Positions 1-15,698 of a stretch of DNA of 64,000 nucleotides are shown here, piece by piece. The notes below the pieces were generated by a model that made no database searches, was not told the origin of the DNA, and saw only the letters and a program-made list of their open reading frames with translations. Origin of the DNA: a virus. Made by a program: the position numbers and the translations under genes. The first letter of the stretch is position 1; every line of letters starts with the position of its first letter. The stretch lies in IMG/VR virus record IMGVR_UViG_3300045988_085064. The stretch is one strand, 5' to 3'.

Positions 1-97
1 AAAAATCCCATGCGTTATATGTAATTTTGGAAAATGACAACTAAAGAATTTCGCAGACAGTTTGAAAATTAACATATGTTAGGGAGGAACAAAAAAA

Positions 98-436
98 ATG
101 AAATACAAGACAACTATCAAAGCAGTCCGGCAATGCGCTTGCAATCCCCGCTCGGTTGGATATTGCGATCTCCAGTATCTGTTAACTAACCATAGTCCAA
201 ACGCTTATACTTGCGGAGTTTACGGGTGGAATTTTGATGTATATGACGTGTACGGCGTGACTATTTGCACCGGATACCGTGGGATGATCGGCCCGCGCTG
301 CGAAGGTGTCAGGGAGTACGAAGAAAAAGCCGCAAAGATTCTTTCATGGGAAAATAAGGAAATGACATACGACGAAAAGCGGGAAGCTGTAGAAAATTTA
401 CTGCATGAATTTTGCAAACTAAATGGAGGATATTAA
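98..436 (+). CDS. hypothetical small Cys-rich protein
   Basis: 112-aa ORF with an AGGGAGG SD about 10 nt upstream. No family recognised. Confidence 0.5.
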   Translation: MKYKTTIKAVRQCACNPRSVGYCDLQYLLTNHSPNAYTCGVYGWNFDVYDVYGVTICTGYRGMIGPRCEGVREYEEKAAKILSWENKEMTYDEKREAVENLLHEFCKLNGGY

Positions 437-437
437 A

Positions 438-845
438 ATGTATATGTATAACTATTTGGAAGCAGTTACCAACGACGCAAAACAAGCTATTCTCGAAAAC
501 ATGAATGACTGGAACTTTGCAGACCGGGAAGAACTGGAAGAAATCGCAAGTGATGAGTTGTGGGTAGATGATAACGTGACCGGCAATGGAAGTGGAAGCT
601 ACAGTTTCAATTCTGAAATGGCAAAAGAATATGTGCTTGAGTCTGATGACGGGCTAGACACTCTCCGCGATGCAGCCAAGGATTATAACTGTGAACACAA
701 AGCATTCACAGCGTTTTTAGAAGAGAACTGGGAATATCTGGATGTTACAATCCGTTGCTATCTTTTATCGCAGGCAATCAGCGCCGCCATTGATGAGCTG
801 GAAGAAGAAGGGAAAATTCAGTATTCGGAAGAAGAAGAAAAGTAA
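438..845 (+). CDS. hypothetical strongly acidic protein
   Basis: ATG 438 follows GGAGGA (424-429) and abuts the upstream stop. Asp/Glu-rich composition only; function unknown. Confidence 0.5.
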   Translation: MYMYNYLEAVTNDAKQAILENMNDWNFADREELEEIASDELWVDDNVTGNGSGSYSFNSEMAKEYVLESDDGLDTLRDAAKDYNCEHKAFTAFLEENWEYLDVTIRCYLLSQAISAAIDELEEEGKIQYSEEEEK

Positions 846-921
846 ACATTTCCGCGCGGTTTCCAAAGGGTTTCCGCTCAAAAATCCATGAACATTTTAT
901 AAAAAAGGAGATTTTTTTGCA

Positions 922-1176
922 ATGAAATATAAAGCCAATTTAATTGGAAAACGATATATAAAAAATGGATATGCTACAGAGCTTTTTTATGAATATCGCG
1001 GAAAAGAATACATGTTAACCGCGTACAATAACGGATATATGGAAGATTCGCTATATAAGCGACATAAAGAAGAACAATATAAGATCGATGAAATGATCAA
1101 GAATGAGAATAAATCAGTTCAGCAAGGAACTTTCAATCTTGATGAAATATTCAATATTTTAGAATCGGAGGAATAA
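922..1176 (+). CDS. hypothetical protein
   Basis: 84-aa ORF with AAGGAG upstream. Confidence 0.45.
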   Translation: MKYKANLIGKRYIKNGYATELFYEYRGKEYMLTAYNNGYMEDSLYKRHKEEQYKIDEMIKNENKSVQQGTFNLDEIFNILESEE

Positions 1177-1179
1177 AAA

Positions 1180-1449
1180 ATGAAAAACGACATATCTAAA
1201 ATTTCTATATCCGTTATTGTAAACCATACGGAAAGAACGACGACGGTTAAAATGTCAGGAGAAAAAACGCCAGTGTCATTTATTCAAACTGCCAGTCAAT
1301 CCGCATACGTCGCCGCTCTTCGAGATGCTGCATTTTATTTACTTGAAAAGGCTGCTTTACTTGATGAAAAAAGTCCGTATAATACACGGGAGCAGGTGGT
1401 CAAAATGTTTAATGAGCATCGCGGATTCAATGAAAAGGAGCTTTTTTAA
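1180..1449 (+). CDS. hypothetical protein
   Basis: 89-aa ORF tightly packed after the previous gene (GGAGGA upstream). Confidence 0.45.
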   Translation: MKNDISKISISVIVNHTERTTTVKMSGEKTPVSFIQTASQSAYVAALRDAAFYLLEKAALLDEKSPYNTREQVVKMFNEHRGFNEKELF

Positions 1450-1450
1450 T

Positions 1451-1576
1451 ATGAAAAAATCTAAAAAACGTTTCAATCCCATTTACTGGATGTTCCAGTA
1501 TTTGGGCGGTCTGATAGCAATTTCCAGCTTGTTTTGGATTCCTGTAATTGTCTGTAAAATTTTAGGAGGTTGTTAA
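1451..1576 (+). CDS. small membrane protein (41 aa)
   Basis: ATG 1451 directly follows the upstream stop. Hydrophobic helix IAISSLFWIPVIV. Confidence 0.35.
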   Translation: MKKSKKRFNPIYWMFQYLGGLIAISSLFWIPVIVCKILGGC

Positions 1577-1577
1577 A

Positions 1578-1790
1578 ATGAAAAGATTTGTTCTCGAATA
1601 TGCACATTTTGAAAAAGCAAAGCCGCGTGAATATATGCCGGAATGCGGACGTATTTTACATAATAAGGAATTGGACAAAATAGAATGTTCATATGTTCGT
1701 GGGTTTATCACGGAAGCGGAAGCCGTTAAAATGATACTAGAATCAGAAGGTAAAATAATTGACGGATTGCAGAAAGAAGATATAATGTGA
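1578..1790 (+). CDS. hypothetical protein
   Basis: 70-aa ORF with a TAGGAGG SD upstream. Confidence 0.45.
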   Translation: MKRFVLEYAHFEKAKPREYMPECGRILHNKELDKIECSYVRGFITEAEAVKMILESEGKIIDGLQKEDIM

Positions 1791-1996
1791 TGCATACTGT
1801 AAAATACTGGGATTCCAAATTGTACCAACTCCAGAAACTGGCAGATTCCATAAACTACCATATAGATAGTGATACAGACTATCTGACTATCTGCCAGCTT
1901 TTGCCAGTATCAAGAAACAAGTCAGCACCCGTCGAGATTCTGCCACTTTTTTGCAAGGTAGTTGAGCGGGTGCAAAGCGTAAAAAATTGTAAATAA
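1787..1996 (+). CDS. hypothetical protein
   Basis: 69-aa ORF with an ATGA overlap to the upstream gene. Confidence 0.4.
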   Translation: MMHTVKYWDSKLYQLQKLADSINYHIDSDTDYLTICQLLPVSRNKSAPVEILPLFCKVVERVQSVKNCK

Positions 1997-2012
1997 TAGG
2001 GAGGGTTTTACC

Positions 2013-2201
2013 ATGGAAAGAAATAGGAAAATCCGTTGCTATATTAACGGGGAATATCTTTTCACTACCGCAAAATTTTCCAGTCAAAAGGCGCTAAAAA
2101 ATCATCTGCGCAGCGTGAAACATATCGAAATCGCATCAATTCCAGTCAAATATATTACGATTTACGACTATGACAAATTGACTTTTGAATATGTTGAATG
2201 A
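2013..2201 (+). CDS. hypothetical protein
   Basis: 62-aa ORF with a GGGAGGG SD upstream. Confidence 0.45.
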   Translation: MERNRKIRCYINGEYLFTTAKFSSQKALKNHLRSVKHIEIASIPVKYITIYDYDKLTFEYVE

Positions 2202-2216
2202 TAGGAGGATTTTACA

Positions 2217-2399
2217 ATGCTATTTTATGGAAATTATGAAAACGGAAAGCGTTATATTTGCGCGTACGATGAAAAAAAGCACGGAGCGCCGCGCGTGATC
2301 TCGGAAGATATAACTTTTATCTATCATAATTCGATCAGTGTTTACCGGATTTACAAAACAGAGCGGGAAGCAATGTCTGGCAGCTGGGGGGAAGTATAG
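2217..2399 (+). CDS. hypothetical protein
   Basis: 60-aa ORF with a TAGGAGGA SD. Ends TAG TAA TAA. Confidence 0.45.
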   Translation: MLFYGNYENGKRYICAYDEKKHGAPRVISEDITFIYHNSISVYRIYKTEREAMSGSWGEV

Positions 2400-2587
2400 T
2401 AATAAGCCCGTTATCATGCCAGACGGAACAGAGACAACGCCAGCGCGTTATTTCGGCACGGAGGATGTTCACGACGTGTTTATATCGTGGTATGACGTAA
2501 AGGGCGAACTTTGGCCGGGTGAAACGGCATAGAACGCCCACCACGCCCCGAACACAAAAAAACATATAAACATATGCCGCCGTTCTG

Positions 2588-2630
2588 AAAGCCCGTTGGC
2601 AAGCCGCTGACGGGCTTTTCTTTGCTTTTC
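2588..2630 (+). terminator. rho-independent terminator closing the left gene block
   Basis: AAAGCCCGT (2588-2596) pairs with ACGGGCTTT (2610-2618), followed by a T-rich run. Confidence 0.7.
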
Positions 2631-2742
2631 TATGTTCCTATAGCACTAGCATAGTTTGCGCCGTATACGTCCACCAGAGCCGCCAGAATGGCATTGTACA
2701 ATATACCTAAAATAGACGGCTTATTTTTGTGCAATTTTTTTG

Positions 2743-2771
2743 TTGACATATGGCGCACGATCTGTTATAAT
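2743..2771 (+). promoter_or_regulatory. consensus sigma70-type promoter (P1)
   Basis: TTGACA 2743-2748, 17-nt spacer, TGtTATAAT ending at 2771. Confidence 0.7.
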
Positions 2772-2777
2772 CAAAAA

Positions 2778-3340
2778 TGACCTATGGGCAACATATGAGG
2801 GGGGAGGAGAAGATATGCTAGTTAGAGACGGCTAACTATGTTGTTTAGACAATCTGCACAATTCCCAACTTTCCGGCACACTTTACTCAACTAAAGTATT
2901 TAGCTAGTCCAAGCTAACTCCAGAAGTTGCTCTTCACTAACTTCATTTCGTTAAAGTGAAAATCCAGGGTCATGTGCGCCTATGCGTATGCATACGCCCA
3001 AGAGATTTTTATTTTTCCGGGCCGGAGTATATAATATTATATATAGCGCGGCGGCTGGTCCTTCGCGTTGCCTAGCGCCATGTCCTGGACTAGCGGATCA
3101 GGGCTATGCGCACAACGGTATTCTTCAGCTCGAGTATGTAAAAGCCGTAGCGACGTTTTGCCGAAAGATTTTGACAGAGGTATAAATATTCTTAGTGAAA
3201 TGTGAACTTAACTCAAATCGGCACCGACGGCGCGACATGATTATGATGAAATTTGCGCTCACAGTTTGCACGTCTTATGCCATATAGACAAGTTACCAAC
3301 CGACAGCCACACATTATTTTACGATGGAAAAATGTGTGAG
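2778..3340 (+). ncRNA. candidate large structured non-coding RNA (class unknown)
   Basis: About 560 nt downstream of P1 with no credible ORF. G+C is visibly higher than in the flanks. Many local helices, for example 2819-2825/2832-2838, 2900-2905/2912-2917 and 3054-3061/3087-3094. Confidence 0.35.
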
Positions 3341-3399
3341 TGTACACAAATCTCCTACGAAAAATGTGATGATGTTGACTTTGATGCTAATACGCTAAT

Positions 3400-3720
3400 C
3401 AATATGTATATGAAAGTATGATAATGCTTCTATTCATAGACATAAAACTGTATATTGCTTATAAATACATATATCTATATCATGTGTATTTCTATCTGCA
3501 TCATTTATGTGCATGATGATGTAGATGTATCTGCATATGAATATGTAAATGTATATGCAGGTGGATGTGTAAATGATAATGATTATTGTTATTGTATATG
3601 TATATAGGTATCTATATATACACGAGCTGGAAAATGAAAAATGACTTTCCTATATGTAAATACAGCCCGAAAATGAAATTCTAAAATTGGAATTGATATT
3701 TACAATTCCAAAATGAAAAT
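3400..3720. repeat. AT-rich low-complexity tract plus phased AAAATGAAA 9-mers (candidate origin or DNA-bending region)
   Basis: TATR-type low complexity over 3400-3620. TATCTGCAT appears twice and TGTAAATG twice. AAAATGAAA occurs at 3631, 3670 and 3710, about 40 nt apart. Confidence 0.4.
3687..3711. promoter_or_regulatory. operator-like perfect inverted repeat TTGGAATTG-N7-CAATTCCAA
   Basis: 9-bp arms at 3687-3695 and 3703-3711, just upstream of P2. A third TTGGAATTG lies at 3797-3805, downstream of the predicted start site. Confidence 0.45.
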
Positions 3721-3732
3721 TAAAATTCGTAC

Positions 3733-3761
3733 TTGACAAATAGAATCAAATGTGGTATACA
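3733..3761 (+). promoter_or_regulatory. sigma70-type promoter (P2)
   Basis: TTGACA 3733-3738, 17-nt spacer, TGgTATACA. Confidence 0.65.
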
Positions 3762-4024
3762 TATATACGAGGTGATAATTATGACGTGACTAATTATTGG
3801 AATTGTATTTTTTGTATTCTTTTTTTTATTTGCATTTTTTGGATTGGTAATGGTACATTGTATTTACGTCAAAAATGGAGGGAAATTATATTTTGATGAG
3901 TGGATTAAAAAAGTATGGCACAAAATTTGGTGATGATGATGTATGTACTCTATAATCACAAATACTATCTTATACACAATGCCATAGGACAATATTATGT
4001 TAGAGAAATGGAGGAGCTGTTTGA

Positions 4025-4156
4025 ATGATTGATGTATTGTGGAATGTCGTTTGTTGCATTGGATATGTCGCGTTTGCTTTGATTGGGATTTTATTGTGTG
4101 TTGCATTAGTTGGTTGTATTTTGAAATTGATTAAAATTTTTAAGGAGAATATCTAA
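4025..4156 (+). CDS. 43-aa membrane micro-protein
   Basis: GGAGGAG SD, then ATG 4025. Sequence MIDVLWNVVCCIGYVAFALIGILLCVALVGCILKLIKIFKENI. Too short for the ORF track. Confidence 0.35.
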   Translation: MIDVLWNVVCCIGYVAFALIGILLCVALVGCILKLIKIFKENI

Positions 4157-4220
4157 TGATTGAAACAAGAATTTATAAATGCGAATATTGCGGTGCAGGT
4201 TACGATTTCTGAGGTATATT

Positions 4221-4427
4221 ATGGATAATGTGTTAGTTAAATTTATAAAAATAATGTATGAACAGGCTAAAATGTCAAAAGATTCGTTAGATATCCATCT
4301 GTATATTGCAAATTGCGTAGGCGCTTGTGCATATGAGCATATGAGAACAGGAGAGAGACTTGCATTTAATTTATGGAAGAACGAATGGAGTGAAAAATTT
4401 AACAAATTGCTTGAAAATAATTCTTGA
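4221..4427 (+). CDS. hypothetical protein (68 aa)
   Basis: ATG 4221 follows TGAGGT. This is the in-frame inner start of track ORF 4179-4427. Confidence 0.4.
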   Translation: MDNVLVKFIKIMYEQAKMSKDSLDIHLYIANCVGACAYEHMRTGERLAFNLWKNEWSEKFNKLLENNS

Positions 4428-4452
4428 CAAACAATAAATCATATGGTATAAT
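4424..4452 (+). promoter_or_regulatory. consensus promoter (P3) driving tRNA and zinc-ribbon gene
   Basis: TTGACA 4424-4429, 17-nt spacer, TGgTATAAT. Confidence 0.7.
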
Positions 4453-4555
4453 ACAGATGTGGTTGAGAGATTGGGTAATCTCAATTACAATTCTTCATTG
4501 TGAACCTCCTGAAAATATAGTCCTGAGCATGACGCTAAAAGGCTCAATCAAATAT

Positions 4556-4648
4556 GGCGGTGTCGGTTAATGGTAAGCCAGCGGTCTTATAAACCGTTTA
4601 GCTCTAGATTGGGGCAAAATCAGAGTTCGACCCTCTGCGCCGCTACCA
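4556..4648 (+). tRNA. atypical class-II (long variable arm) tRNA, formal anticodon UAU, CCA encoded
   Basis: Manual cloverleaf. Acceptor GGCGGTG/CGCCGCT, D arm GGTT-AATGGTA-AGCC, anticodon arm GCGGT-CTTATAA-ACCGT, 23-nt variable region, T arm CAGAG-TTCGACC-CTCTG, discriminator A plus CCA. Confidence 0.6.
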
Positions 4649-4678
4649 GATAAAATCCAAATCCAATGAGGTGATAAT

Positions 4679-4915
4679 ATGGAAAAATCTCCACTAAAAG
4701 CCATCCGCGCAAAATGCTTGGATTGTACTTGTGGTCAAGCAAGCGAAGTTAAAAATTGCCAAATCAAGCAATGTCCACTTTGGGAATATAGATTTGGCAA
4801 ATCAGGGCGTACCCGCTCAATGACCGACGAGCAGAGGCAAGCTGCGGCAGAACGGCTCAAATCAGCTCGTCTGGCAAAGAAATCATTGACTAATAATGAA
4901 GAAAATTCAGATTAG
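4679..4915 (+). CDS. small zinc-ribbon protein (CxxC...CxxxxC)
   Basis: 78-aa ORF with a GAGGTGA SD. N-terminus KAIRAKCLDCTCGQASEVKNCQIKQCPLWEYRFG. Confidence 0.6.
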   Translation: MEKSPLKAIRAKCLDCTCGQASEVKNCQIKQCPLWEYRFGKSGRTRSMTDEQRQAAAERLKSARLAKKSLTNNEENSD

Positions 4916-5052
4916 TTGATTAAGTAAGGTAAGTTGTAGGGTAAGTAGTTAAGAGGAATTTATTGATTATTAGTGTATGATTATTTTATTTGCTTGTTTA
5001 GGCTCGTTTGCGGCTGGCGTTGCAGTTGGGATGCTGATTGCAAAAACAATGC

Positions 5053-5081
5053 TTGACAAATAAAATCAAGTATGGTATAAT
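5053..5081 (+). promoter_or_regulatory. consensus promoter (P4) of the 1-kb tRNA/structured-RNA transcript
   Basis: TTGACA 5053-5058, 17-nt spacer, TGgTATAAT. Confidence 0.7.
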
Positions 5082-5092
5082 TGAAAATGTAA

Positions 5093-5267
5093 ATAATATC
5101 CGACCGGATTTGAAGATAACCGTCAAAATCTATATCACGCCTGTACTGAGGTCTGCGCAGAGTTTGAGAAGCGGCAGATACAGACTAGAGAATTGGGGTC
5201 GCGCCTGAGCGTGTTCCGTTAGCATGAGGACAAAAACATAACGGCAAAGGTGATATAAGGATATTAT
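5093..5267 (+). ncRNA. closed structured RNA domain D1 (unknown class)
   Basis: ATAATATCC (5093-5101) pairs with GGATATTAT (5259-5267). Nested inside it, TATATCAC (5131-5138) pairs with GTGATATA (5250-5257). No ORF. Confidence 0.35.
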
Positions 5268-5335
5268 GTAAACATCATTCACGGGTCAGTGCTAGAAATA
5301 GCTATGAGGTAGGAAGCTGGCTTGAGATAAAATAT

Positions 5336-5420
5336 GCGGGATTGGTGGAATTGGCAGACACATCTGATTCAAGCTCAGATGCCGTAAGGCGTAGGGATTC
5401 GAGTTCCCTATCCCGCACCA
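5336..5420 (+). tRNA. tRNA-Leu (anticodon CAA)
   Basis: Canonical class-II cloverleaf. Acceptor GCGGGAT/ATCCCGC, D region GTGGAATTGGCAGACAC, anticodon arm TCTGA-TTCAAGC-TCAGA, long variable arm, T arm AGGGA-TTCGAGT-TCCCT, ACCA end. Confidence 0.9.
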
Positions 5421-5512
5421 TTAAGTCCACAGCTTGTTGGATGCATACGGCTTGCTAAACTGAATAGGAATCCAATGCTTCTAATGGGTTGATGCTTAAA
5501 GCCCATTTCCAT

Positions 5513-5607
5513 ATGATAGCAAGTAGCGCAAATTTTATATAAGATGCTCAATGAGAATTGGGGAATGTATATAAGATGAGGTCATGCGCGGCCTCGCTTG
5601 CTATCAT
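5513..5607 (+). ncRNA. closed structured RNA domain D2 in a tRNA-equivalent position
   Basis: An 11-bp terminal helix: ATGATAGCAAG (5513-5523) pairs with CTTGCTATCAT (5597-5607). It is preceded by the same leader hairpin and CCATAT motif as the tRNA-like element at 5726. Contains an internal direct repeat TATATAAGATG twice. Confidence 0.3.
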
Positions 5608-5725
5608 AACCAGTAGTTATGGTTTGTTGACCATTGTTTGGATTACTAGCCAATCGATGCCTAGAGTCGATAAAAACAAATCAATGGCGGTTCTGGTAGG
5701 TTGAGCCTAAAGCCTACTACCATAT

Positions 5726-5799
5726 GACCGTATCAGCTAATTGGTAAGCCCAAGCTGTTCAGAGCAGTTGGAATGCAGATTCAAATCCTGCTTCGGTCA
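5726..5799 (+). tRNA. tRNA-like element, formal anticodon CAG, imperfect
   Basis: Acceptor GACCGTA/TTCGGTC has one T-T mismatch. There is an extra nt between the D and anticodon stems. Anticodon arm AGCTG-TTCAGAG-CAGTT. T arm GCAGA-TTCAAAT-CCTGC has an A-C mismatch. No encoded CCA. Needs tRNAscan-SE. Confidence 0.35.
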
Positions 5800-5805
5800 T
5801 ACGAT

Positions 5806-5987
5806 TATAGGATTGCACACAGTTATGCCCACCATTGTAACTGACCCAGATGCAAACCTAAGAAAATCTTAAAACCCTTAGTAAATAACGCGCGTCACTG
5901 CTAAGGTTGGCTGTTGGTCGAATCTCATCTAGTACCATCCGAAGAGCAAAACTGGAAAATGTGCTCATAGTGCGGTGATAATCCTAT
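5806..5987 (+). ncRNA. closed structured RNA domain D3 (unknown class)
   Basis: ATAGGATT (5807-5814) plus GCAC (5815-5818) pairs with GTGC (5970-5973) plus AATCCTAT (5980-5987). Followed by hairpin ATAGGG (6001-6006) with CCCTAT (6052-6057). Confidence 0.3.
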
Positions 5988-6140
5988 TCCGTGCATTGGT
6001 ATAGGGCTTGGGTAAAGATGACCTTGTAAGTAGTTGATAGTGGAACAATAACCCTATATATCAAGTCAATATGCGCATGAACATTGCGACTTGTTTTAAT
6101 AAAATTTTATTAGAAATTGAAAGGAAATTAAAAGGAATTT

Positions 6141-6416
6141 ATGACAAAGAAGGAACTAATCAAGTTTGTAGCAGATAGTACAGAGAATACGGTCAAGGAC
6201 ACAACTGAGATCGTAGATACGTTCATTGACTATATCAGACATAGCCTAGTTCAGCATGAAGATGTGGTGATTCATGGCTTTGGCAAGTTTACAACTAAGC
6301 TGCGAGATGCAAGAACTGCTCGTAATCCACAGACTGGTAAAATCATTGAAGTCCCTGCCAAGTATGCTCTGACGTTTAAGCCGACAAGCACACTAAAGGC
6401 AGAAATCAATGAGTAA
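6141..6416 (+). CDS. hup: HU/IHF-family DNA-binding protein
   Basis: 91 aa. Sequence KKELIKFVA...VVIHGFGKFTTKLRDARTARNPQTGKIIEVPAKYALTFKP is the classic HU arm motif. Confidence 0.85.
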   Translation: MTKKELIKFVADSTENTVKDTTEIVDTFIDYIRHSLVQHEDVVIHGFGKFTTKLRDARTARNPQTGKIIEVPAKYALTFKPTSTLKAEINE

Positions 6417-6430
6417 ATAATCCTCCTGTT

Positions 6431-6467
6431 AAAATCCCTATGGTCGAAAGATTGTAGGGATTTTTCT
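6431..6467 (+). terminator. rho-independent terminator after hup
   Basis: AAAATCCCTA (6431-6440) pairs with TAGGGATTTT (6455-6464), then a T run. Confidence 0.7.
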
Positions 6468-6477
6468 AAAATAACCC

Positions 6478-6506
6478 TTGACAAATTGTCGCTATGGTGC
6501 TATACT
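6478..6506 (+). promoter_or_regulatory. sigma70-type promoter (P5)
   Basis: TTGACA 6478-6483, 17-nt spacer, TGcTATACT. Confidence 0.7.
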
Positions 6507-6535
6507 TAAATCATCAAATGAAGGAGCTGAACATT

Positions 6536-7375
6536 ATGAATGAACTGTTTATTATGAGCCTCAAGGCAAAGCATCGTAGCGAAGGCACTGTTCGTGAATA
6601 TACCAAGGCGATTGAGAATTGCATGGCTTATGTCAATAAGCCTGAAGCTGAAATCAAGCCGATTGACCTTGAATTGTGGCAGTCCAGCATGAGCAATCTC
6701 AGCTCTGCATCTGTTGCTCAGAGAACATCTGCGGTCAGAGAATACTTCAAATTCCTTTATCGGAATGAATTCATTAGCCGCAATCCGGCTGAGATGCTTG
6801 AAGCACCGCAGATTAAAAATCGTGAGCAGTCAGCTCTTAATGGTGAACAGGTCAGGGCAATGGTCAATGCGGCAACTAATGAGCGCAATAAAGCAATTAT
6901 TATGATGCTTGCTCAGACTGGTTTGCGTATTCATGAGCTTGCTAATATCACGCTTGAACAGTATGAATCCCGTAGTAATAATGTGCTGGTCATCCGTGGC
7001 AAGGGCGATAAGGATAGGCTGGTTGGTCTGGCAGATGAAACAATCGAGCTGATTGATAACTATATTTCCAATGAGCGCAAAGATGGATGCGAATATCTGT
7101 TCGTAGGCAATCGTGGAAATAAAATGGATGGCAAGAACACCAGCGCCATGCTCAAGGTATGTGCTAGAAAAGCTGGTATTGAAAATTGGGAAGAATTGCA
7201 TATTAGTAATCATACCATGCGCCGCACATTTGCTACTATGATGTCTGAGGCTGATGTACCTATTGAGATCATTAGTAAAGCAATGGGGCATAGTTCAGTT
7301 GCCATTACAGCGAATAGATATATTAAGCGTACAGAGCAGAGAGCAATTAACGCAATGAGCGTTGTTAATTTCTAA
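6536..7375 (+). CDS. tyrosine recombinase/integrase (XerC/D-like)
   Basis: The C-terminal sequence HTMRRTFATMM...MGHSSVAITANRYI carries the R..H..R..Y catalytic pattern. ATG 6536 follows GAAGGAG. Track start 6494 lies upstream of the predicted transcription start. Confidence 0.85.
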   Translation: MNELFIMSLKAKHRSEGTVREYTKAIENCMAYVNKPEAEIKPIDLELWQSSMSNLSSASVAQRTSAVREYFKFLYRNEFISRNPAEMLEAPQIKNREQSALNGEQVRAMVNAATNERNKAIIMMLAQTGLRIHELANITLEQYESRSNNVLVIRGKGDKDRLVGLADETIELIDNYISNERKDGCEYLFVGNRGNKMDGKNTSAMLKVCARKAGIENWEELHISNHTMRRTFATMMSEADVPIEIISKAMGHSSVAITANRYIKRTEQRAINAMSVVNF

Positions 7376-7403
7376 AATAAAAAATACAAGGAGGACAAAA
7401 ATA

Positions 7404-7898
7404 ATGTTTGAGTACAAATTCTTTACTGGTAACACTGCTCCGAAATATGTGGAGGGAGATTATTTGCTTACTGTAAAGGGAAATGTGATGGAAATGAAAA
7501 AGGTAGGTGAAGCAAATACCGTTAAGGTGTCTTCTATTTGTAAAGAGGGAGACACTTGGAGCCTTCAGGGTGGAATTGAAGACTGTCTTTCTAAGGTTCC
7601 AGAAAGCACCAGAATCAATGTTGGCGATACAGTCAAATTCAAGAATGACATGAATAATTTTTTCTCTTGGCGCGAAACGGCAGAGATGAGAGAATTTATC
7701 GAGAAAGAAAATATGCTCATGAAGTATGTTCTTAGTGCTGTTGAAACTGAACGAGCAATTGAAAATCTTGAAACATTTAAATATGTGCGCGATATGAGTT
7801 TTGTAGTGCTTTATATTGATTCCCGGTTTGCTTATATTTACGAAGGCCAGACTGGCTATGGGCTGTTTGTTGAAACAAAGGATATTAAGCGCGTATGA
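7404..7898 (+). CDS. hypothetical protein
   Basis: ATG 7404 follows AAGGAGG. 164 aa. Confidence 0.55.
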   Translation: MFEYKFFTGNTAPKYVEGDYLLTVKGNVMEMKKVGEANTVKVSSICKEGDTWSLQGGIEDCLSKVPESTRINVGDTVKFKNDMNNFFSWRETAEMREFIEKENMLMKYVLSAVETERAIENLETFKYVRDMSFVVLYIDSRFAYIYEGQTGYGLFVETKDIKRV

Positions 7899-8179
7899 TT
7901 TGTCAATATGATATTATAGAGGCTATGAAAGATTATTTCAAGGCTGATGAGGAGATTTTCGTAGAGGCGCTTATATATCTGCTAAAGAGCTGCGATCCAG
8001 TGCATGGCATATGGATCAAAGGTGAAATTGCTCATGAGCTAAGAATGATGGGCCGTTGCCCCAAGTGCGGTGCTAAACTTGAGCGAATTAAGACTTATGA
8101 ACCACATACTGAGTTGGATGATTGCCCATATGAAATTATTGTTGAGGATTGTTGTCCAAAATGCGATTGGAGGGAATGA
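7895..8179 (+). CDS. zinc-ribbon protein
   Basis: Two CxxC pairs (CPKCG...CCPKC). ATGA overlap with the upstream gene. Confidence 0.5.
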   Translation: MICQYDIIEAMKDYFKADEEIFVEALIYLLKSCDPVHGIWIKGEIAHELRMMGRCPKCGAKLERIKTYEPHTELDDCPYEIIVEDCCPKCDWRE

Positions 8180-8406
8180 TGGATAAAAACGAAGATTTTA
8201 ACAAAGTGCTAGAAGATAAGCTAAAGATGGAATTTGAGCGGCATTTTAATCGTGGACTAATAGCAGGTTGGGATGCTTGTATCTATGAAATTAGTAAACA
8301 GATTGCACCACTAACATCAGCTAAGTCCATAAAAGACCTAATTAAATCCAAGATGGGCGAGGCTGACAAGCGGAGAAATCGAGGTGATGCTAATGCGACC
8401 AATTGA
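8176..8406 (+). CDS. hypothetical protein
   Basis: ORF overlapping the upstream stop. The exact start (8161, 8176 or 8179) is uncertain. Confidence 0.45.
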   Translation: MMDKNEDFNKVLEDKLKMEFERHFNRGLIAGWDACIYEISKQIAPLTSAKSIKDLIKSKMGEADKRRNRGDANATN

Positions 8407-8647
8407 TGCTGACGAATTAGAGCAAATCCTCGTTAAAGATTTTGAATTTTATCCAGCAATTGTTCGCCGCGCCATTCAACGATGTAAGACTCTTGATATT
8501 CCAAATATTGTAAGATGTCGTAATTGCAAGTATTGTAAGCAAAATCTATTTATGGGGAACTATTGGTGTAATAAGTTTGTTGGTAAAATTAGTGTTTGTA
8601 ACCCAGATGGATTTTGTGAATATGGAGAAATGAAGAATGGATGGTAA
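8393..8647 (+). CDS. Cys-rich hypothetical protein
   Basis: ATG 8393 is 6 nt after GAGGTG. Confidence 0.5.
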   Translation: MRPIDADELEQILVKDFEFYPAIVRRAIQRCKTLDIPNIVRCRNCKYCKQNLFMGNYWCNKFVGKISVCNPDGFCEYGEMKNGW

Positions 8648-8903
8648 GGACCGTCTAACCCCGCTATGGATTGCAGGAGGCGCAGTCCTATTTGTAAGCT
8701 CACTGTTGCCTCTGTGCGGCTCGATTGTAGACTTTGTACAGTCAGTTATCAATGCTAAGATTAACCGTATGTCGTTTGAACTAGAGCTTGACAAGGCAGA
8801 ACATGAAGCTGCTGCTGAAAAGATTGCGCCTAGCCCTGCTATCACCCAAGCTATTGGGTTTAGCTTGCCGCCTGAGCCTGAATATGAGGAGGGACATGAA
8901 TGA
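8637..8903 (+). CDS. membrane protein
   Basis: N-terminal TM helix LWIAGGAVLFVSSLLPL. Confidence 0.45.
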   Translation: MDGKDRLTPLWIAGGAVLFVSSLLPLCGSIVDFVQSVINAKINRMSFELELDKAEHEAAAEKIAPSPAITQAIGFSLPPEPEYEEGHE

Positions 8904-9094
8904 GCCGTAGACCTAATCACGTCTATGACATTCCTTGTATGCGATGCGATTGTCAAACAGATTGTGACAAATATGTAAAAATCGACCCACGCATGACCGC
9001 ACAGAGAGATAAAATGTGGAATGACGCAGATTTGAATTGTATGGATTGTGTACTGAGAAATGTGCTAAAAATGAGGAAGGAGTCGGCTAATTGA
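8900..9094 (+). CDS. Cys-rich hypothetical protein
   Basis: 64-aa ORF coupled to its neighbours. Confidence 0.45.
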   Translation: MSRRPNHVYDIPCMRCDCQTDCDKYVKIDPRMTAQRDKMWNDADLNCMDCVLRNVLKMRKESAN

Positions 9095-10464
9095 CAGATA
9101 AAGGCTGTAAAAAGCCATATATTCATTTCTTGTCAAATGCCGCAGTTGACGTAACTGGCTCTTGTCATCATGTGCGATTCAAAAAATATAGCATCCTCCT
9201 AGATTGTGGCATGATACAGGGGATGGGAGATATTGTATCTAACTATAAGGCTAATCTTGCACAACTAAAAAAGATTAAACCAAGGGATGTAGATTTTATT
9301 GTATTGGGGCATAGCCATTTAGATCATATTGGGCTTGTTCCTGCATTATATGCTAAAGGATGCAATGCGCATCTCTATGTGCCATCTGGCTCTACTAATT
9401 TTCTCAAATTGTTATGGGAAGATAGCCTAAAAATCATGCGATCTGATTGTCTGAAAATTCAGAATAAGCACGGACAGAAAGCTGCGCCATTCTATGACGA
9501 ACAAGCTATTGAACGTGCGCTTAATCGCATTATAGAGATTGATTATAACATACCAATCTCGCTTGCACCAGACATTAAATTGACATATTATCCAGCCGGT
9601 CATATTATCAATTCGGCGCAATGCGTACTTGAGCTAAAAGATGGATATGTGACTAAGCGCATTGGTTTCACTAGTGATATTGGTGGTGTATCTGAAAAAC
9701 CGTACAAAGCGCGTAGACAGCCGTTGCCATTTGTTGATGTTCTTATCTCTGAATGCACATATTGCCAACAGGGGCGACCCAACAGCCACAAGGATAGAGA
9801 TAAGGATATTGAGAAGATTAAGACGGTTATTGCTGAATCCAATAAAATACTAATCCCATGTTTTTCTCTTGACCGAACACAATCTATGTTGCGCCTATTA
9901 CATGATAAGGGTATTGATAAGCAAATCAAAATTTATCTTGATTCCCCTCTTGCATCTAAATTCTGTGCAATCTGGCCGTGGGAAGAAGATGAAATTGAGA
10001 ATGTGCGAATTGTTGAATCTCAAGAAGAATCAGTTAATCTACAAATGCGAAATGAGCATTGCTTAATCATAAGTGCATCAGGCTTCCTTGTCGGAGGCCG
10101 GATTATGAGTCATCTAAAAACGGCTCTGCCTGATAGTTGCAATCATATCTTATTCTGCGGCTTTGCTGGGGAAAATGGACTTGCGTCTCAAATTAAATCC
10201 AATATGCCAGAGGTCAATATTGATGGCGTGAATGTAGCGAACAAAGCCAATATCACAGAACTGCGCTCATTTAGTAGCCATGCTAGTTATGAAGAATTGA
10301 TTGACTACTTAACAAATCAATGCCGTTTCAATAAACTATGCTTAGTGCATGGGAACTATGAGAACAAAGTAGAATTTTCTCATACATTACAAGATGAGCT
10401 AATAAAACAAGGTAAATCAAGTAGAGTAGTATGCACTCAACAAGATCAGCGAATTTATTTGTAA
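9091..10464 (+). CDS. MBL-fold / beta-CASP-type metallo-nuclease
   Basis: HxHxDH motif (LGHSHLDHIGLVP). 457 aa, a length typical of RNase J/CPSF/SNM1-like enzymes. TTG start. Confidence 0.8.
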   Translation: MTDKGCKKPYIHFLSNAAVDVTGSCHHVRFKKYSILLDCGMIQGMGDIVSNYKANLAQLKKIKPRDVDFIVLGHSHLDHIGLVPALYAKGCNAHLYVPSGSTNFLKLLWEDSLKIMRSDCLKIQNKHGQKAAPFYDEQAIERALNRIIEIDYNIPISLAPDIKLTYYPAGHIINSAQCVLELKDGYVTKRIGFTSDIGGVSEKPYKARRQPLPFVDVLISECTYCQQGRPNSHKDRDKDIEKIKTVIAESNKILIPCFSLDRTQSMLRLLHDKGIDKQIKIYLDSPLASKFCAIWPWEEDEIENVRIVESQEESVNLQMRNEHCLIISASGFLVGGRIMSHLKTALPDSCNHILFCGFAGENGLASQIKSNMPEVNIDGVNVANKANITELRSFSSHASYEELIDYLTNQCRFNKLCLVHGNYENKVEFSHTLQDELIKQGKSSRVVCTQQDQRIYL

Positions 10465-10480
10465 AATTAAATAAACCCTC

Positions 10481-10509
10481 TTGACAACCGCTCTAATCTA
10501 TGATATAAT
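10481..10509 (+). promoter_or_regulatory. consensus promoter (P6) with SD-complementary spacer
   Basis: TTGACA 10481-10486, 17-nt spacer, TGaTATAAT. Positions 10484-10493 are complementary to 10528-10537. Confidence 0.65.
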
Positions 10510-10520
10510 CCAAGTATCAA

Positions 10521-10826
10521 ATGAAAGGGGCGGTTGTTATTATAAAATTCTGTTTGAACATCACGTCGATTGGTTATCCATTTTATGTAGAGGCGATTAA
10601 CAAGTATCCTTGTCTTGTGGATGAAAAGTATAAGATGTCCACGACGCGAGTATGGAACAAGGACAAAAGCATTGTGCAGAATATTACATATATTGACATT
10701 TCATCTATAGCTAAACTAAAAGAACTGATTGATGAAACAGGACATGATGTTATAATTGCACCACCACGCAAGTGGCGCGACAAGAAGCATTATGAGCTTG
10801 AAATTTATGATGATTATAGGGAGTAA
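10521..10826 (+). CDS. hypothetical protein (ends ...YELEIYDDYRE)
   Basis: 101-aa ORF. The start is uncertain: ATG 10521 would be almost leaderless from P6, and an in-frame ATT at 10539 follows a GGGG-rich SD-like site. Confidence 0.5.
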   Translation: MKGAVVIIKFCLNITSIGYPFYVEAINKYPCLVDEKYKMSTTRVWNKDKSIVQNITYIDISSIAKLKELIDETGHDVIIAPPRKWRDKKHYELEIYDDYRE

Positions 10827-10832
10827 GTAATT

Positions 10833-11475
10833 ATGACCACTAAAAAATTGTATGACATTATCAAAGCATGGCGTGATTCCTGTGATACTGCCGGGTTGTA
10901 TCTAATTGTCAAGGATATGGATACTACACTGAAGCAGCTTGAATCTGATATGCTCATTGAGCAATCAAAGAAATCTGGTACTAAATCCATTGTGACTGCG
11001 GCGAATAGGATTATTAAAAAACGCTGAATCGCGCAATAAGCCTATGCTTGAAGGTATGTTTACCAATCAGACAAGAGATGGATTAACGCTATATTGTGTA
11101 TGTGATAGCTTTGTAGCTATTAGATTCAACGAAAAGCCGCTCCTGCCTGAGATTGATGAAAAATATCACGGATAGGAAATGCAGCTTGAACAGATTGTTA
11201 AGTTTATGGACGGCTCTAAGGAAATTAAGCTGCCTAATATTGGCGAACTCAAGGTATATATCAAGACGCATAAAATTAAAGAAAAGGATAATCCTAAGAA
11301 AGTGGCTGATTATCTGCTTGATGAGGAATTAAATCTGTAGATAAATCCACAGTATTTACTTAATACTATGGAATGTCTGCCTGATTGTAAGGCGTATGCG
11401 GCAAATAGAATCAGTCCGATTTATTTCAAGGCAGAAAATGGTGATGGCGTGGTTATGCCGGTAAATCATCAATAA
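10833..11475 (+). pseudogene. sliding-clamp-like gene, disrupted or recoded (one frame change at an A6 tract, two in-frame TAG)
   Basis: Frame 0 runs 10833-11027. Frame +1 is open from 10996 to TAA 11473-11475 except for TAG codons at 11173 and 11338. Motifs KPMLEGMF...LYCVCDSFVAIRF and NPQYLLNTME...SPIYFKAENGDGVVMPV recall DnaN-type clamps (recalled from memory). Confidence 0.4.
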
Positions 11476-11489
11476 GGAGGAATAAAAAG

Positions 11490-11810
11490 ATGGAATATAA
11501 TATTGGAGACATCATAAAGTTCAAAAATGAAGCCGGTGTATTTCAGGTTGAGATTAAGAGTGAGATTCCAACAATAGATGCTATTCAAGGATTTGCTGAC
11601 GATATGATTTTTGAAGGCAAAATGCGGTTTGAAGTACACCACAGAGACTATGGAGAATATATTATTACCATGACAAGCCGTGAAGAATCCAATGATACGG
11701 GTAAAATTATCGTATGTTTGCTTGATACTTGTAATGATGAGGTTGAATATTATCTTGGACAGATTATTCAGTATGAAGATGAAGAAGATGTATTTGAGTT
11801 GATGAAGTGA
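11490..11810 (+). CDS. hypothetical protein
   Basis: 106-aa ORF with a TAAGGAGGA SD. Confidence 0.5.
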   Translation: MEYNIGDIIKFKNEAGVFQVEIKSEIPTIDAIQGFADDMIFEGKMRFEVHHRDYGEYIITMTSREESNDTGKIIVCLLDTCNDEVEYYLGQIIQYEDEEDVFELMK

Positions 11811-14800
11811 TGAATACAAACTATACAATCCTTCACCTTCATTCTATGCTATCTAATGGCGTAACCAACATAGATTCTGTGACGCGCTACGACCAATATA
11901 TAGACCGCGCCGCAGAGTTAGGGATGAAGGCAATAGCATTTTCTGAACACGGGTCAATTTTTCAATGGGTAAAGAAAAAATTGCATACTGAAGAAATGGG
12001 TATGAAATATATCCATGCTCAAGAATTTTATCTAACTCAGACCTTGGATGAAAAAATCCGTGATAATTACCACTGTCTGTTAATTGCTAAAAATTATGAT
12101 GGCATATTAGAGCTGAACAAGTTATCAAGTAAGGCATTTAACCGTGACGATAATTCATTTTATTATGTACCGCGAATCACGATTGATGACGTAAAGAATA
12201 CCAGTGATAATATCATTGTATCTACAGCTTGTCTTGGCGGCGTATTGAACAAAGCACCAGATGATGTTCGATGGGATTTCTACCATTGGCTATGTGAGCA
12301 TAGAGACAGATGTTTTCTTGAGATTCAGCCCCATCTTGACCCCGCTCAAAAGAGCTATAACAACACGCTATGGGCACTATCTAAACAAAGCGGCTTGCGG
12401 CTATTGATGTGTACTGATACTCATGCGCTCAATTCTACTCATGTAGATGGGCGACGCATCCTACAAAAAGCCAAGAATATTCATTTTGACGGTGAAGATA
12501 AATTTCATCTTGAAATGATGAGCTATGATGAGTTAGTGCAACTATGCTGCATGCAAGACGCGCTACCTATAGATGTGTACTTGGATGCTATTGAGATGAC
12601 AAACACGGTAGCAGATATGATTGAACCGTTTGAGCTTGATTATAGCTATAAATATCCTCATCTATGGGGTGATGATAGTGAGGCTGTGCTTAGAGATAAG
12701 ATCGCAGACGGTATTATGTGGCGCGGTGTTGATAAGCTGCCTAATTATCAAGAATACCTAGATCGCATCGAATACGAGATGAAAGCATATATCCATAATA
12801 GCGCGATTGACTTTATGTTGCTCATGGAGGACATCATAGCATGGTGCAAGACACAGGGTATTCTTGTGGGATATGGGCGCGGCTCATGTAATGGCTCAGT
12901 CATTGCTTATCTGCTTGGAATTACTGAGATGGATAGCATCAAGCACGGGCTTAATTTTGAGCGATTCATGAATACGGAGCGTGTATCACTGTCTGATATT
13001 GATACAGATTTTCCTCCTAGTAGAATCAATGAGGTCAAGCAATATATATTTAACAAACACGGATTACACTGTTCTGACATTGTAACATTTAATACGATTG
13101 CTCTGAAGGGCGCTATTCGTGATGTTGGTAGAGCGTTGGAAATGCCACTTGATGAAGTAGGGCAAATCTGTAATACCGTAGAACAAGATGAGCACAAATG
13201 CCGCACTAAATATCCAGAGCTATTCAAATATGTCGATATTGTAAATGGTTGCGTTGTATCAGTTGGCAATCATCCTTGCGGCTTAGTTGTATCACCTCAT
13301 TCTATTGATGACCGTATGGGGCTATTCACCACATCAACAGACGATGTTCCAATCAGTCAAATTAATATGAAAGAGGTTGATTTGCAGAATTATGTCAAGC
13401 TAGATTTACTCAAACTAGACACCATTGAACTAATCAACGAGACGTGTAAATTAGCTGGTATTGAGCGCCTAACACCTGACAATGTTGATATAAATGATAA
13501 AGTCGTGTGGGATAGCATTAGAGATGATACTACGGCTATATTCCAGTGGGAAGGCATGACTGGCGATAGATATATCAAGCAACTCTTGTCTGAATCTAAT
13601 ATTCAGAAATTCAAGGCATTGAACCCAAATATTGACTATATGACATTGCTATCAATCGGTAATGGCGCAATTCGTCCTGCCGGTGCATCATATCGTGATG
13701 ACCTTGCTAATGGTGTTATCCGCAAATCTGGAAATGCGGCGATTGATGAATTTATGAAGCCGACATTTGGCTATCTTGTATTCCAGTGTCAAATTATTCA
13801 ATTCTTACATGAATATTGTGGCTATACTATGGGCGAAGCCGATGTTGTGCGCCGCCATTTTGCTAAAAAGACTGGTACAGACAAGGATATACCACAAATC
13901 AAGGCTGGTTTTGCTGAGACAATGGCAGAGCGATATAATATGAGCCAAGATGAATCAGATAAGGTTATAGCTGATTTTATCCAAGTCATTATCGACGCTA
14001 GTAATTATCTGTTCTCTCTAAATCATAGTCAGCCATATAGCTATGAGGGATATGTATCAGGTTGGCTTAGATACCACTATCCACTTCAATTCCTTACGGT
14101 TGCTATGAATATCAATCAAGGTAAAGAGGAAAAGACGGCGGCACTAACGGCATATGCTCATAAAGTCGGCATTAAAATTAAATCTCCTAAATTTCGTCAT
14201 TCTCGCTCAGATTATTTTTACGATATAAACGAAAATACAATCTATAAGGGGCTTGGCTCAATCAAGTATATGAGCACCGATGTAGCCGAGGCATTATATG
14301 GTATGCGCGATATGCAGTTTAAGAATTTTATTGATGTGCTATTTGCTATTCAACAGCTCAACTCTAAACCAGATGCGCGGCAACTTGATATTCTAGTTAA
14401 AATTGGTTATTTTGCAGAATTTGGACCAGCCAAGGCACTATTGCTAGGTATTGAGATTTTTAATAAATTTTCAAAATGCAAGACAATTAAACTTGACAAA
14501 TGGGTTGGAATGGGTTATAATGTAGATATGCTCAAGCCGTATGCTGGTAATCTAACAGAGAAAACAGCTAGTCAACTTGATAATCGCGGCATCATATTAT
14601 CGATTCTGCGCTCAATGAAAATGCCAAAGACAACTATTGCTGATAAACTGAAATGGCAGATTGAGTTATTAGGCTATGTGGATGGCAACGACCCCAATTC
14701 AGACCTTAATGATTGGCTAGTGCTAGATGTTAAGACAACAGGATATGGTACGATTTATTGTATGCTTTATAACCTATGCTATGGCGCAGAACGCACATAT

Positions 14801-14968: not shown

Positions 14969-15161
14969 AGGATTCTGTGCAAATGAATGTGTGACCGGAT
15001 ATTGCCCGATTGCGCTTGATAGGAAATACGATTGGTATAGTGATATGGGATATGATGTGCCAAAGAACTGCAAAGAATGTTACTACAATACATTTAATTG
15101 TGCAGATTGCATTTTCCAAAAATCAAAATATTGTATAAAATTAGAGGGGGGCGTAAAATAA
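14955..15161 (+). CDS. Cys-rich hypothetical protein
   Basis: 68-aa ORF overlapping the dnaE end. Confidence 0.5.
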   Translation: MKKCKGFCANECVTGYCPIALDRKYDWYSDMGYDVPKNCKECYYNTFNCADCIFQKSKYCIKLEGGVK

Positions 15162-15520: not shown

Positions 15521-15525
15521 GGTGA

Positions 15526-15690
15526 ATGATGACCAATCAAGAAGCTTCCACATTGATAGTTAAGGAATATGGTAATTATAGAGGACTTTGCATTGAATAC
15601 AAACAATTTTCTTATATCAACCCAAATCTATCTGAAGCTATTGCTATGGCTGTAGCAGCATTAAGTAAAGAAAATAATAAGGAGGATTAA
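15526..15690 (+). CDS. hypothetical protein (54 aa)
   Basis: TGAGGTGA SD, then ATG 15526. Below the track cutoff. Confidence 0.35.
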   Translation: MMTNQEASTLIVKEYGNYRGLCIEYKQFSYINPNLSEAIAMAVAALSKENNKED

Positions 15691-15698
15691 GTAAGTAA

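Follow-up and report, generated by a model that had tools for sequence, protein, structure and literature searches.

The window, a stretch of 64,000 nucleotides (nt) from the IMG/VR virus record IMGVR_UViG_3300045988_085064, contains at 4556-4648 (+) the gene of an unusual tRNA with the anticodon UAU and a long variable region. Comparison of related sequences indicates that this is probably an AUA-decoding isoleucine tRNA of class I, with two anticodon-type hairpins and a promoter of its own. Hairpin 1 would decode, and hairpin 2, placed in the variable region, would give the molecule its identity for isoleucyl-tRNA synthetase (IleRS).

ARAGORN calls tRNA-Ile(tat) at exactly these positions and on this strand, and the Rfam tRNA model RF00005 gives a score of 49.4 bits (gathering score 29, E=1.5e-7). 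The parts of the molecule are:

4556-4648, +: whole tRNA gene, 93 nt, 7/5 acceptor/T geometry (ARAGORN, Rfam, covariation)
4565-4579, +: D arm, 4-bp stem GGUU/AGCC including U12.G23, small 7-nt loop AAUGGUA
4581-4597, +: decoding arm (hairpin 1), stem GCGGU/ACCGU, loop CUUAUAA
4598-4620, +: variable region with the second arm (hairpin 2), 23 nt, UUA-GCUC-UAGAUUG-GGGC-AAAAU
4621-4637, +: T arm, CAGAG-UUCGACC-CUCUG; helix 100% paired in relatives, double changes in 5/5 pairs

The acceptor stem has 7 bp (GGCGGUG/CGCCGCU) including the wobble pairs G1.U72 and U6.G67. It is separated from the D stem by U8 and C9, the D stem is followed by A26, and the 3' end consists of A73 (4645) and the encoded CCA (4646-4648). 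The anticodon UAU (4588-4590) lies in a 7-nt loop with U33 and A37 and is able to pair with AUA. Hairpin 2 has a 4-bp stem GCUC (4601-4604)/GGGC (4612-4615) and a 7-nt loop UAGAUUG (4605-4611) with GAU in the centre (4607-4609); its linkers are UUA on the 5' side and AAAAU (4616-4620) on the 3' side. The initial annotation had described the 7-bp acceptor, the GTTCGA-type T loop, the encoded CCA, the A discriminator and the 23-nt variable region with its own 4-bp stem GCTC/GGGC, and had read the loop CUUAUAA as the formal anticodon UAU. All of this anatomy is correct: ARAGORN accepts the cloverleaf as tRNA-Ile(tat), and the 4-bp stem covaries in relatives. What had been overlooked is that the loop of the variable arm has 7 nt and is centred on GAU.

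The folding energy of the single sequence is unremarkable (z-score -1.34), and it is the comparison with relatives that supports the structure. Across 23 distinct members of the family, 94% of the cells are paired and 24 of the 25 pairs have changed on both sides, values reached by none of 500 shuffles. The helix of the variable arm is 95.5% paired, with double changes in 4/4 pairs. All five tRNA helices, the extra arm included, are supported by covariation.

The amino acid inserted at AUA

The evidence supports a genuine phage-encoded isoleucine tRNA for AUA. In place of a Codetta-like test of AUA in distant homologues, codon substitutions were counted against the DNA of related phages; the protein search for such homologues had given only 95-100% identical relatives among the 120 matches listed. 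In close relatives, the AUA codons of the window are aligned to AUA, and then to AUC/AUU, ACA, GUA and AUG, with leucine codons at 2%. In five non-redundant relatives, changed AUA codons become isoleucine (60), valine (32), methionine (20) or leucine (16) codons, and changed CUA codons become leucine (191) or isoleucine (29) codons. AUA thus behaves as an isoleucine codon in the window genome. The test holds even if the relatives share the tRNA, because AUA with the meaning of leucine would change synonymously to YUA, not to AUY. The gene order points to isoleucine as well. Among loci with relatives of the window polymerase (30-94% identity), a long tRNA(UAU) of the window kind precedes the polymerase gene in 15 loci, and the same slot is occupied by an ordinary class I tRNA(UAU) of 76-77 nt in four loci and by a member of a second long family, called family B below, in one locus. 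It is the replacement by a class I tRNA(UAU) in sister phages that indicates isoleucine here.

The body of the molecule does not resemble leucine, serine or tyrosine tRNAs. When 40 family members were typed by nearest neighbour from their acceptor, D and T parts, leucine was the top isotype in 2/40, serine and tyrosine in none, whereas leave-one-out controls recovered leucine in 25/25, serine in 24/25 and tyrosine in 21/25 cases (84-100%). The nearest neighbours of the family bodies are class I tRNAs (arginine, threonine, CAU, lysine, valine), mostly those for ANN codons. The segment from the acceptor to the anticodon stem has 18 nt as compared with 19-21 in phage leucine, serine and tyrosine tRNAs, the D arm being shorter, and the extra arm differs from ordinary class II arms in its 7-nt loop and 5-nt 3' linker. 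Of the features of class II, the long paired variable arm is present, and a leucine-, serine- or tyrosine-like body and anticodon are not. Two earlier suggestions, a Leu/Tyr-type class II body and insertion of leucine at AUA, are not supported by these data: the body is nearest to class I tRNAs, with a shorter D arm and an arm loop of 7 nt, and AUA exchanges with AUU/AUC, valine and methionine codons rather than with those of leucine. The third one, a genuine though unusual isoleucine decoder of AUA, is borne out by the codon substitutions and by the class I tRNA(UAU) in the slot of sister phages.

The GAU loop of the extra arm

An exact search of IMG/VR for the decoding stem-loop produced 113 loci with 79 tRNA(UAU), of which 33 have a length of at least 84 nt. 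In the pattern searches, the D arm was the signature of the family. The alignment of 23 distinct members has invariant stretches only at U34-A37 (UAUA), at the CCA end and at the GAU in the centre of the variable-arm loop. When the D loop, extra loop and T loop were fixed and the anticodon was left free, 109/109 tRNAs (79 unique) among the matches listed had UAU. When the extra loop was left free, with only the D loop, UAUA and T loop fixed and a long variable region required, 134 unique tRNAs were found. About 130 of them have GAU in the centre of a 7-nt loop, and this over 40 distinct stems; three have GAC in place of GAU, and one is unrelated. A73 is present in 141/153 family members.

The extra loop resembles the anticodon loop of the major isoleucine tRNA. 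Its composition in the family is C/U, A (96%), G, A, U, U/A, A/G; G, A and U occupy the positions equivalent to 34-36 in about 97%, whereas the decoding loop has U34. In 39 cases the loop is CAGAUAA, one base (U33A) from CUGAUAA, the consensus of phage tRNA-Ile(GAU). The equivalent of C29-G41 occurs in 93% of the extra arms, compared to 61% of tRNA-Ile(GAU), 9% of other class I tRNAs and 20% of the decoding arms of the same family, and A38 is kept in 78% of extra loops versus 17% of decoding loops. The window tRNA itself has G29-C41 in the decoding arm and C-G at the equivalent position of the extra arm. Hairpin 2 combines GAU in the centre of a 7-nt loop with a C32/A38-type frame, C31-G39 and C29-G41. 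The C29-G41 pair, the anticodon bases and A73 are known isoleucine identity elements of Escherichia coli (PMC9976931); from the same set, the window tRNA has A73 and lacks C4-G69, having G4-C69.

The linker that follows hairpin 2 has mostly 5-6 nt and is close to a class I variable loop. After deletion of hairpin 1 in silico, ARAGORN reports a class I tRNA(GAU) in 133/154 cases, the window included. Thus the molecule can be read in two ways, either as a long-armed, class II-like tRNA(UAU) or as a class I tRNA(GAU) into which a decoding hairpin is inserted behind position 26.

Several candidate pairings of the extra loop were considered and rejected. A pseudoknot of the loop (AGAUU) with AAUC at the junction of the linker and the T stem exists in the window lineage; it is not conserved across the family, as judged by eye in the 23-member alignment. 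An A33-U37 pair across the loop is broken by the variants CGAUU, AGAUG and AGAUA. Nor was any covariation seen between the extra loop and the D loop or T loop that would indicate a pairing.

The family is found in phages from gut, marine, soil and dairy sources. Cultured carriers are Lactobacillus phages LpeD, ENFP1, 3-521 and Lpa804, Synechococcus phages SynMITS9220M01 and DSL-LC02, and Acinetobacter phage vB_AbaS_qsb1, in which the gene is annotated as "tRNA-Ile" or is not annotated. When 185,579 representative genomes of bacterial and archaeal species were scanned for a decoding arm of the window type together with AGATT, six matches were obtained, one of them a tRNA. The family is essentially absent from cellular genomes, that is, essentially phage-only. 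The sole tRNA from a cellular genome (L149:823-1309) is on a 1.6-kb contig in a metagenome-assembled genome of Terriglobia, where it adjoins a transfer-messenger RNA gene; this contig is probably phage-derived. No conserved phage protein partner was found within 4 kb in 208 loci, the largest cluster being clade-specific and present in 23/146 family loci. The lack of a conserved neighbouring protein suggests that the loop is read by a universal factor of the host.

Between the window tRNA and the tRNA of many related phages, all differences fall within the 17-nt decoding arm, where 8/17 positions are not the same: the arm is GCGGUCUUAUAAACCGU in the window (4581-4597) and GCUGGCCUAUACCCAGU in L129:564-580 and L123, the latter with a very unusual C33. 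It looks like the decoding arm has been swapped as a module. A 74-nt tRNA with a near-identical body is present at L128:3641-3714, L130:3589-3662, L131:4111-4184, L143:3160-3233, L132:1049-1122 and L137:1607-1680. Its anticodon is UAU in four loci, UGU in L132 and UAC in L137, which suggests rapid anticodon switching in this lineage. Family B, the second family of long tRNA(UAU), is found in L004, L005, L050, L061, L062, L070, L110 and L144. The loop of its extra arm AGCC-CUNNCAA-GGUU looks canonical in its frame for an anticodon loop, and C36, A37 and A38 are conserved.

The same two-arm design is seen, independently, in phage suppressor tRNAs. Long amber and opal suppressor-type tRNAs are present in the loci of the family search, and two further scans for such tRNAs, with only the decoding stem-loop fixed, gave 87 unique CUA tRNAs and 50 unique UCA tRNAs. 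A pooled, de-duplicated table has 40 CUA and 36 UCA forms with a long arm. Among the former, the extra loop has 7 nt with CUG or UUG in its centre in 23/40 (CUCUGAA, CUUUGAA, UUCUGAA). Among the latter, 21/36 have an extra loop centred on CCA, typically CUCCAAA, and many of these have a tryptophan-like acceptor AGGGGC...GCCCCU-G73. Nearest-neighbour typing places the CUA/YUG bodies with tRNA-Gln, and the UCA/CCA bodies with tRNA-Trp and tRNA-Gln. Deletion of hairpin 1 leaves, according to ARAGORN, a class I tRNA with the cognate anticodon in 22/29 cases of the glutamine class and 20/21 cases of the tryptophan class. The remaining long CUA and UCA forms resemble ordinary serine, leucine or tyrosine tRNAs or selenocysteine tRNAs. 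The suppressor-type loci are L352-L469 and L470-L589, for instance L381, L407 and L439 (CUA) and L497, L518 and L584 (UCA). ARAGORN labels the two-arm tRNAs among them tRNA-Pyl and tRNA-SeC.

In all three classes the triplet of the extra loop is the cognate anticodon of an anticodon-reading synthetase, and a single identity position distinguishes it from the decoding anticodon. The pairings are not systematically mixed; the only exceptions are a CCA-centred loop in one CUA tRNA and a YUG-centred loop in one UCA tRNA. GAU, YUG or CCA is present in such a loop in only 4 of about 420 ordinary leucine, serine and tyrosine arms, tRNAs with the cognate anticodons themselves (GAU, UUG, CCA) almost never have a long arm, and in other long-arm tRNAs a one-step relation of the extra loop to the anticodon is found at chance level only. 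It may be, with about even chances, that phages have evolved at least three times tRNAs with a decoding hairpin (UAU, CUA, UCA) and a cognate identity hairpin (GAU, CUG/UUG, CCA), charged by the unmodified host IleRS, glutaminyl-tRNA synthetase (GlnRS) and tryptophanyl-tRNA synthetase (TrpRS), respectively, the window tRNA being the sense-codon member. Long arms also occur in other phage tRNAs, namely Met/Ile2-type CAU tRNAs of 95 nt (L036:1530-1624, L096) and glutamine UUG tRNAs of 88-90 nt (L003:4057-4146, L015, L027, L057, L112). These extra arms have no obvious cognate anticodon.

Typical bacterial IleRS depends on G34 or on lysidine at position 34 and charges UAU about 100-fold worse. For the E. 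coli enzyme, in which a tryptophan stacks on the wobble base, the anticodon UAU is charged with about 1% of the efficiency of LAU, where L is lysidine (PMC3575796). In the proposed mechanism, hairpin 1, directly after the D arm, would be used by the ribosome to read AUA. Hairpin 2, in the position of a long variable arm, would be a replica of the anticodon arm of the major tRNA-Ile and would offer IleRS the identity elements that have no counterpart in the decoding arm. The decoding arm would thereby be free to evolve for AUA reading. The two hairpins could form alternative coaxial stacks on the D stem. For charging, hairpin 2 would occupy the anticodon position, with hairpin 1 looped out after position 26; for decoding, hairpin 1 would be there and hairpin 2 would form a class II-type arm. 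Two alternative stacks are the simplest geometry given that the linker after hairpin 2 is similar to a class I variable loop. The presentation of hairpin 2 in the normal position of an anticodon arm is also the simplest way to serve three synthetases of different architecture by one layout. Transcription from its own consensus promoter would supply the phage, which has 39% GC, with AUA-decoding capacity.

Alternative explanations and related systems

Several observations weigh against an IleRS-directed role of hairpin 2. It has A33 (96%) and mostly U37 (61%), and hence no determinant for N6-threonylcarbamoyladenosine at position 37 (t6A37), which bacterial-type IleRS uses. The nearest-neighbour test did not place the bodies of the UAU family with tRNA-Ile or, clearly, with any isotype. 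The class I tRNA(UAU) genes of sister phages do without the extra arm. In family B the centre of the extra loop is variable (GAC, AGC, AAC, CGC, CAC) and is never GAU, and family-like tRNA(UAU) with the valine anticodon GAC in the centre of the extra loop are present in L295, L335 and L337. The E. coli figures for charging of UAU may not be those of the IleRS type of the phage host. From geometry we infer the two-stack model, including the ability of IleRS to reach hairpin 2 in its position. Finally, no description of anticodon replicas in variable arms was found in open-access papers and bioRxiv, and a prior description elsewhere is possible.

A conceivable but unlikely explanation is that the extra arm is functional and is read by a factor other than IleRS, the tRNA still being an isoleucine decoder of AUA charged via other determinants. 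The reader could be an enzyme modifying U34 or A37, the T-box leader of a host ileS gene, a factor that stabilises or processes the tRNA, or an anticodon nuclease, the arm then being a decoy. Such a role would account for the strong selection on the GAU loop, for A33 and U37, which depart from a true isoleucine anticodon loop, for the existence of class I tRNA(UAU) genes without the arm, and for the different conserved loop in family B. However, the triplet follows the presumed amino acid in three unrelated classes (GAU-Ile, YUG-Gln, CCA-Trp), which is a synthetase-like specificity rather than that of one nuclease or modification enzyme. T-boxes occur mostly in Firmicutes, whereas the family is also present in cyanophages and an Acinetobacter phage, and no conserved phage protein partner is encoded nearby. 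Rather improbable is a two-headed decoder in which either hairpin could enter the ribosome, UAU reading AUA and GAU reading AUU/AUC. Both hairpins indeed have 7-nt loops centred on isoleucine anticodons, the cloverleaf is regular after deletion of hairpin 1, and the second loop keeps U33 and A37 in the glutamine and tryptophan classes. But nearly all decoding loops have U33 (97% of 2069 class I tRNAs) and a purine at 37, and in hairpin 2 of the window family position 33 is A in 96% and position 37 a pyrimidine in 61%. Moreover, host tRNA-Ile(GAU) is abundant, leaving no obvious need for a second reader, and in the suppressors a second arm reading CAG or UGG would add nothing.

The long variable region, A73, and A15 and U48, compatible with a leucine-type Levitt pair, could also belong to a class II tRNA of leucine (or tyrosine or serine) identity whose anticodon has drifted to UAU, inserting leucine at AUA like the nematode nev-tRNAs. 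Leucyl-tRNA synthetase does not read the anticodon. This is nevertheless very improbable: the body is not of the leucine, serine or tyrosine kind and has a shorter D arm than class II tRNAs, the extra arm combines a 7-nt loop with linkers of 3 and 5 nt, AUA exchanges with AUY, valine and methionine codons with only 2% of leucine codons in close relatives, and a class I tRNA(UAU) takes the place of this tRNA in sister phages. The invariance of GAU in the extra loop would be left without explanation. Hardly credible, finally, is a neutral relic of a duplicated or inserted anticodon arm with no present function. The architecture of tandem anticodon arms does suggest an origin by duplication or insertion. 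A relic would decay, however, and GAU is kept in about 130/134 unique sequences from diverse sources on 40 different covarying stems, with C29-G41 enriched to 93%.

Hairpins that imitate anticodon arms and recruit synthetases are known from the operator of E. coli thrS and from the tRNA-like structures of turnip yellow mosaic virus and brome mosaic virus. A further mimic is found in the mRNA of yeast histidyl-tRNA synthetase, where an anticodon-like hairpin is recognised by the synthetase (PMC6542539). In these cases, as proposed for hairpin 2, an anticodon-like loop is the element recognised by a synthetase. However, the mimics are parts of mRNAs or of viral genomes and serve regulation or the tagging of 3' ends, whereas hairpin 2 is inside a decoding tRNA, beside a different and functional anticodon.

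Class I tRNA-Ile2 with unmodified UAU (Mycoplasma mobile, the suppressor of a tilS deletion in Bacillus subtilis, and many phage tRNA-Ile(TAT) genes) decodes AUA as isoleucine without lysidine and has A73, as does the window tRNA. It faces the discrimination of IleRS against U34 (PMC3575796, PMC3919564), and in M. mobile the solution is on the side of the enzyme, with arginine in place of tryptophan at the IleRS residue that stacks on the wobble base (PMC3575796). Its variable loop is 4-5 nt long, as opposed to the extra arm with the GAU loop in the window tRNA, and the decoding arms of the window family, unlike those of class I tRNA-Ile2(UAU), have largely lost C29-G41 and A38. Nematode nev-tRNA-Ile(UAU) shares with the window tRNA the long variable arm and the UAU anticodon. 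The nev-tRNAs are derived from tRNA-Leu, are charged only with leucine, are eukaryotic and are weakly expressed (Hamashima et al. 2012, PMC3333845). In contrast, the window tRNA has a class I-like body and an extra arm that replicates the isoleucine anticodon arm; it was not assigned to the nev-tRNAs, as the body is not leucine-like and AUA behaves as isoleucine in codon substitutions.

The allo-tRNAs, like the window tRNA, have long arms and non-matching anticodons and occur in metagenomes and phages. They have 8/4 or 9/3 geometry, a selenocysteine-type D arm and serine identity, and UAU is one of their predominant anticodons (Mukai et al. 2017, PMC5389517). The window tRNA has 7/5 geometry, A73, and a D arm of 4 bp whose loop contains G18G19; a reading of it as an 8/4 or 9/3 allo-tRNA was rejected, as the acceptor has 7 bp and the 5-bp T stem is completely paired and covaries fully. 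Suppressor tRNAs of recoded phages (UAG to glutamine, UGA to tryptophan), many of which have the same two-arm design, differ from the window tRNA in reading stop codons instead of a sense codon; the window phage uses the standard code. Phage tRNA-CUA have been reported as substrates of E. coli GlnRS (PMC12636597).

The interest of such tRNAs, with decoding and identity anticodons on separate arms, would be high if the design were confirmed. It would explain how phage AUA decoders can be independent of TilS or a specialised IleRS, how amber and opal suppressors of recoded phages are charged by host GlnRS and TrpRS, and why phage genomes have oddly long genes annotated as "tRNA-Ile", "tRNA-Pyl" and "tRNA-SeC". 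With synthetases that read the anticodon, a change in codon reading normally damages charging, and this is a main brake on change of the genetic code and a practical obstacle to its engineering. A tRNA that reserves one cognate anticodon arm for the synthetase and decodes with another would solve this problem in a new way. It would also suggest a portable recipe for engineered suppressor or sense-reassigning tRNAs that are still good substrates of native synthetases. The examples in cultured Lactobacillus, Synechococcus and Acinetobacter phages make the idea directly testable.

Genome context

Two further elements are located upstream of the tRNA gene:

4424-4452, +: consensus sigma-70 promoter with extended -10 box, TTGACA-17-TGnTATAAT, 12/12 matches with TG, about 104 nt upstream of the tRNA
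4455-4555, +: leader between the promoter and the tRNA, about 100 nt, with a 5' hairpin and an invariant core containing CCUCC

The promoter is kept in related phages, and the leader is almost invariant in phages whose polymerases are only 30-35% identical. The invariant core of the leader is CATTGTGAACCTCCT...TATAGTCCTGAGCATGACGATAAAAGGCTC, in which CCUCC is similar to an anti-Shine-Dalgarno sequence, and its 5' hairpin contains AGAUUGGG, like the extra arm of the tRNA. Rfam at a permissive threshold matched only the two window tRNAs over 4380-5450 and gave no match to the leader. The leader may be a processed small RNA or a processing or regulatory element.

The window is the genome of a tailed phage with about 39% GC. 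It encodes a DnaE-type polymerase, a tyrosine recombinase, RecJ, a RecD-like helicase, ribonucleotide reductase, and tape measure and portal proteins. It reads well in the standard code, and recoding of stops was rejected, as reassignment of any one stop codon does not markedly lengthen the long open reading frames (ORFs). Stop-codon suppression is therefore not at issue, and the initial annotation was right that the tRNA is not a stop-codon suppressor. Megablast of positions 1-20000 against INPHARED gave no match, and the distant search around the window tRNAs matched only the leucine tRNA.

Directly downstream of the tRNA, at 4679-4915 (+), there is a gene for a 78-aa cysteine-rich protein (CxxC...CxxxxC), which is kept at the same position in 22 related loci whichever type of tRNA(UAU) they carry. 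Its only match in PHROGs is below the threshold, to phrog_1709 of unknown function (E 0.008). The only other tRNA of the window is an ordinary class II tRNA-Leu(CAA) at 5336-5420 (+). A second perfect promoter TTGACA-17-TGnTATAAT, at 5053-5081 (+), lies about 255 nt upstream of it and would leave a long leader.

AUA accounts for 215 of the 14,926 codons in long ORFs and for 20% of the isoleucine codons. Its usage is strongly bimodal between the window genes. In some small or replication genes AUA makes up more than half of the isoleucine codons, whereas the integrase, ribonucleotide reductase and several structural genes have none or one; examples are the ORFs at 16506-17084, 17792-18421, 21074-22192, 42166-42993 and 49876-50397 as opposed to those at 6494-7375, 28675-30939, 51707-52774 and 56434-57525. 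This uneven usage could reflect a mosaic origin of the genome, or selection by the level or timing of expression tied to the supply of the tRNA.

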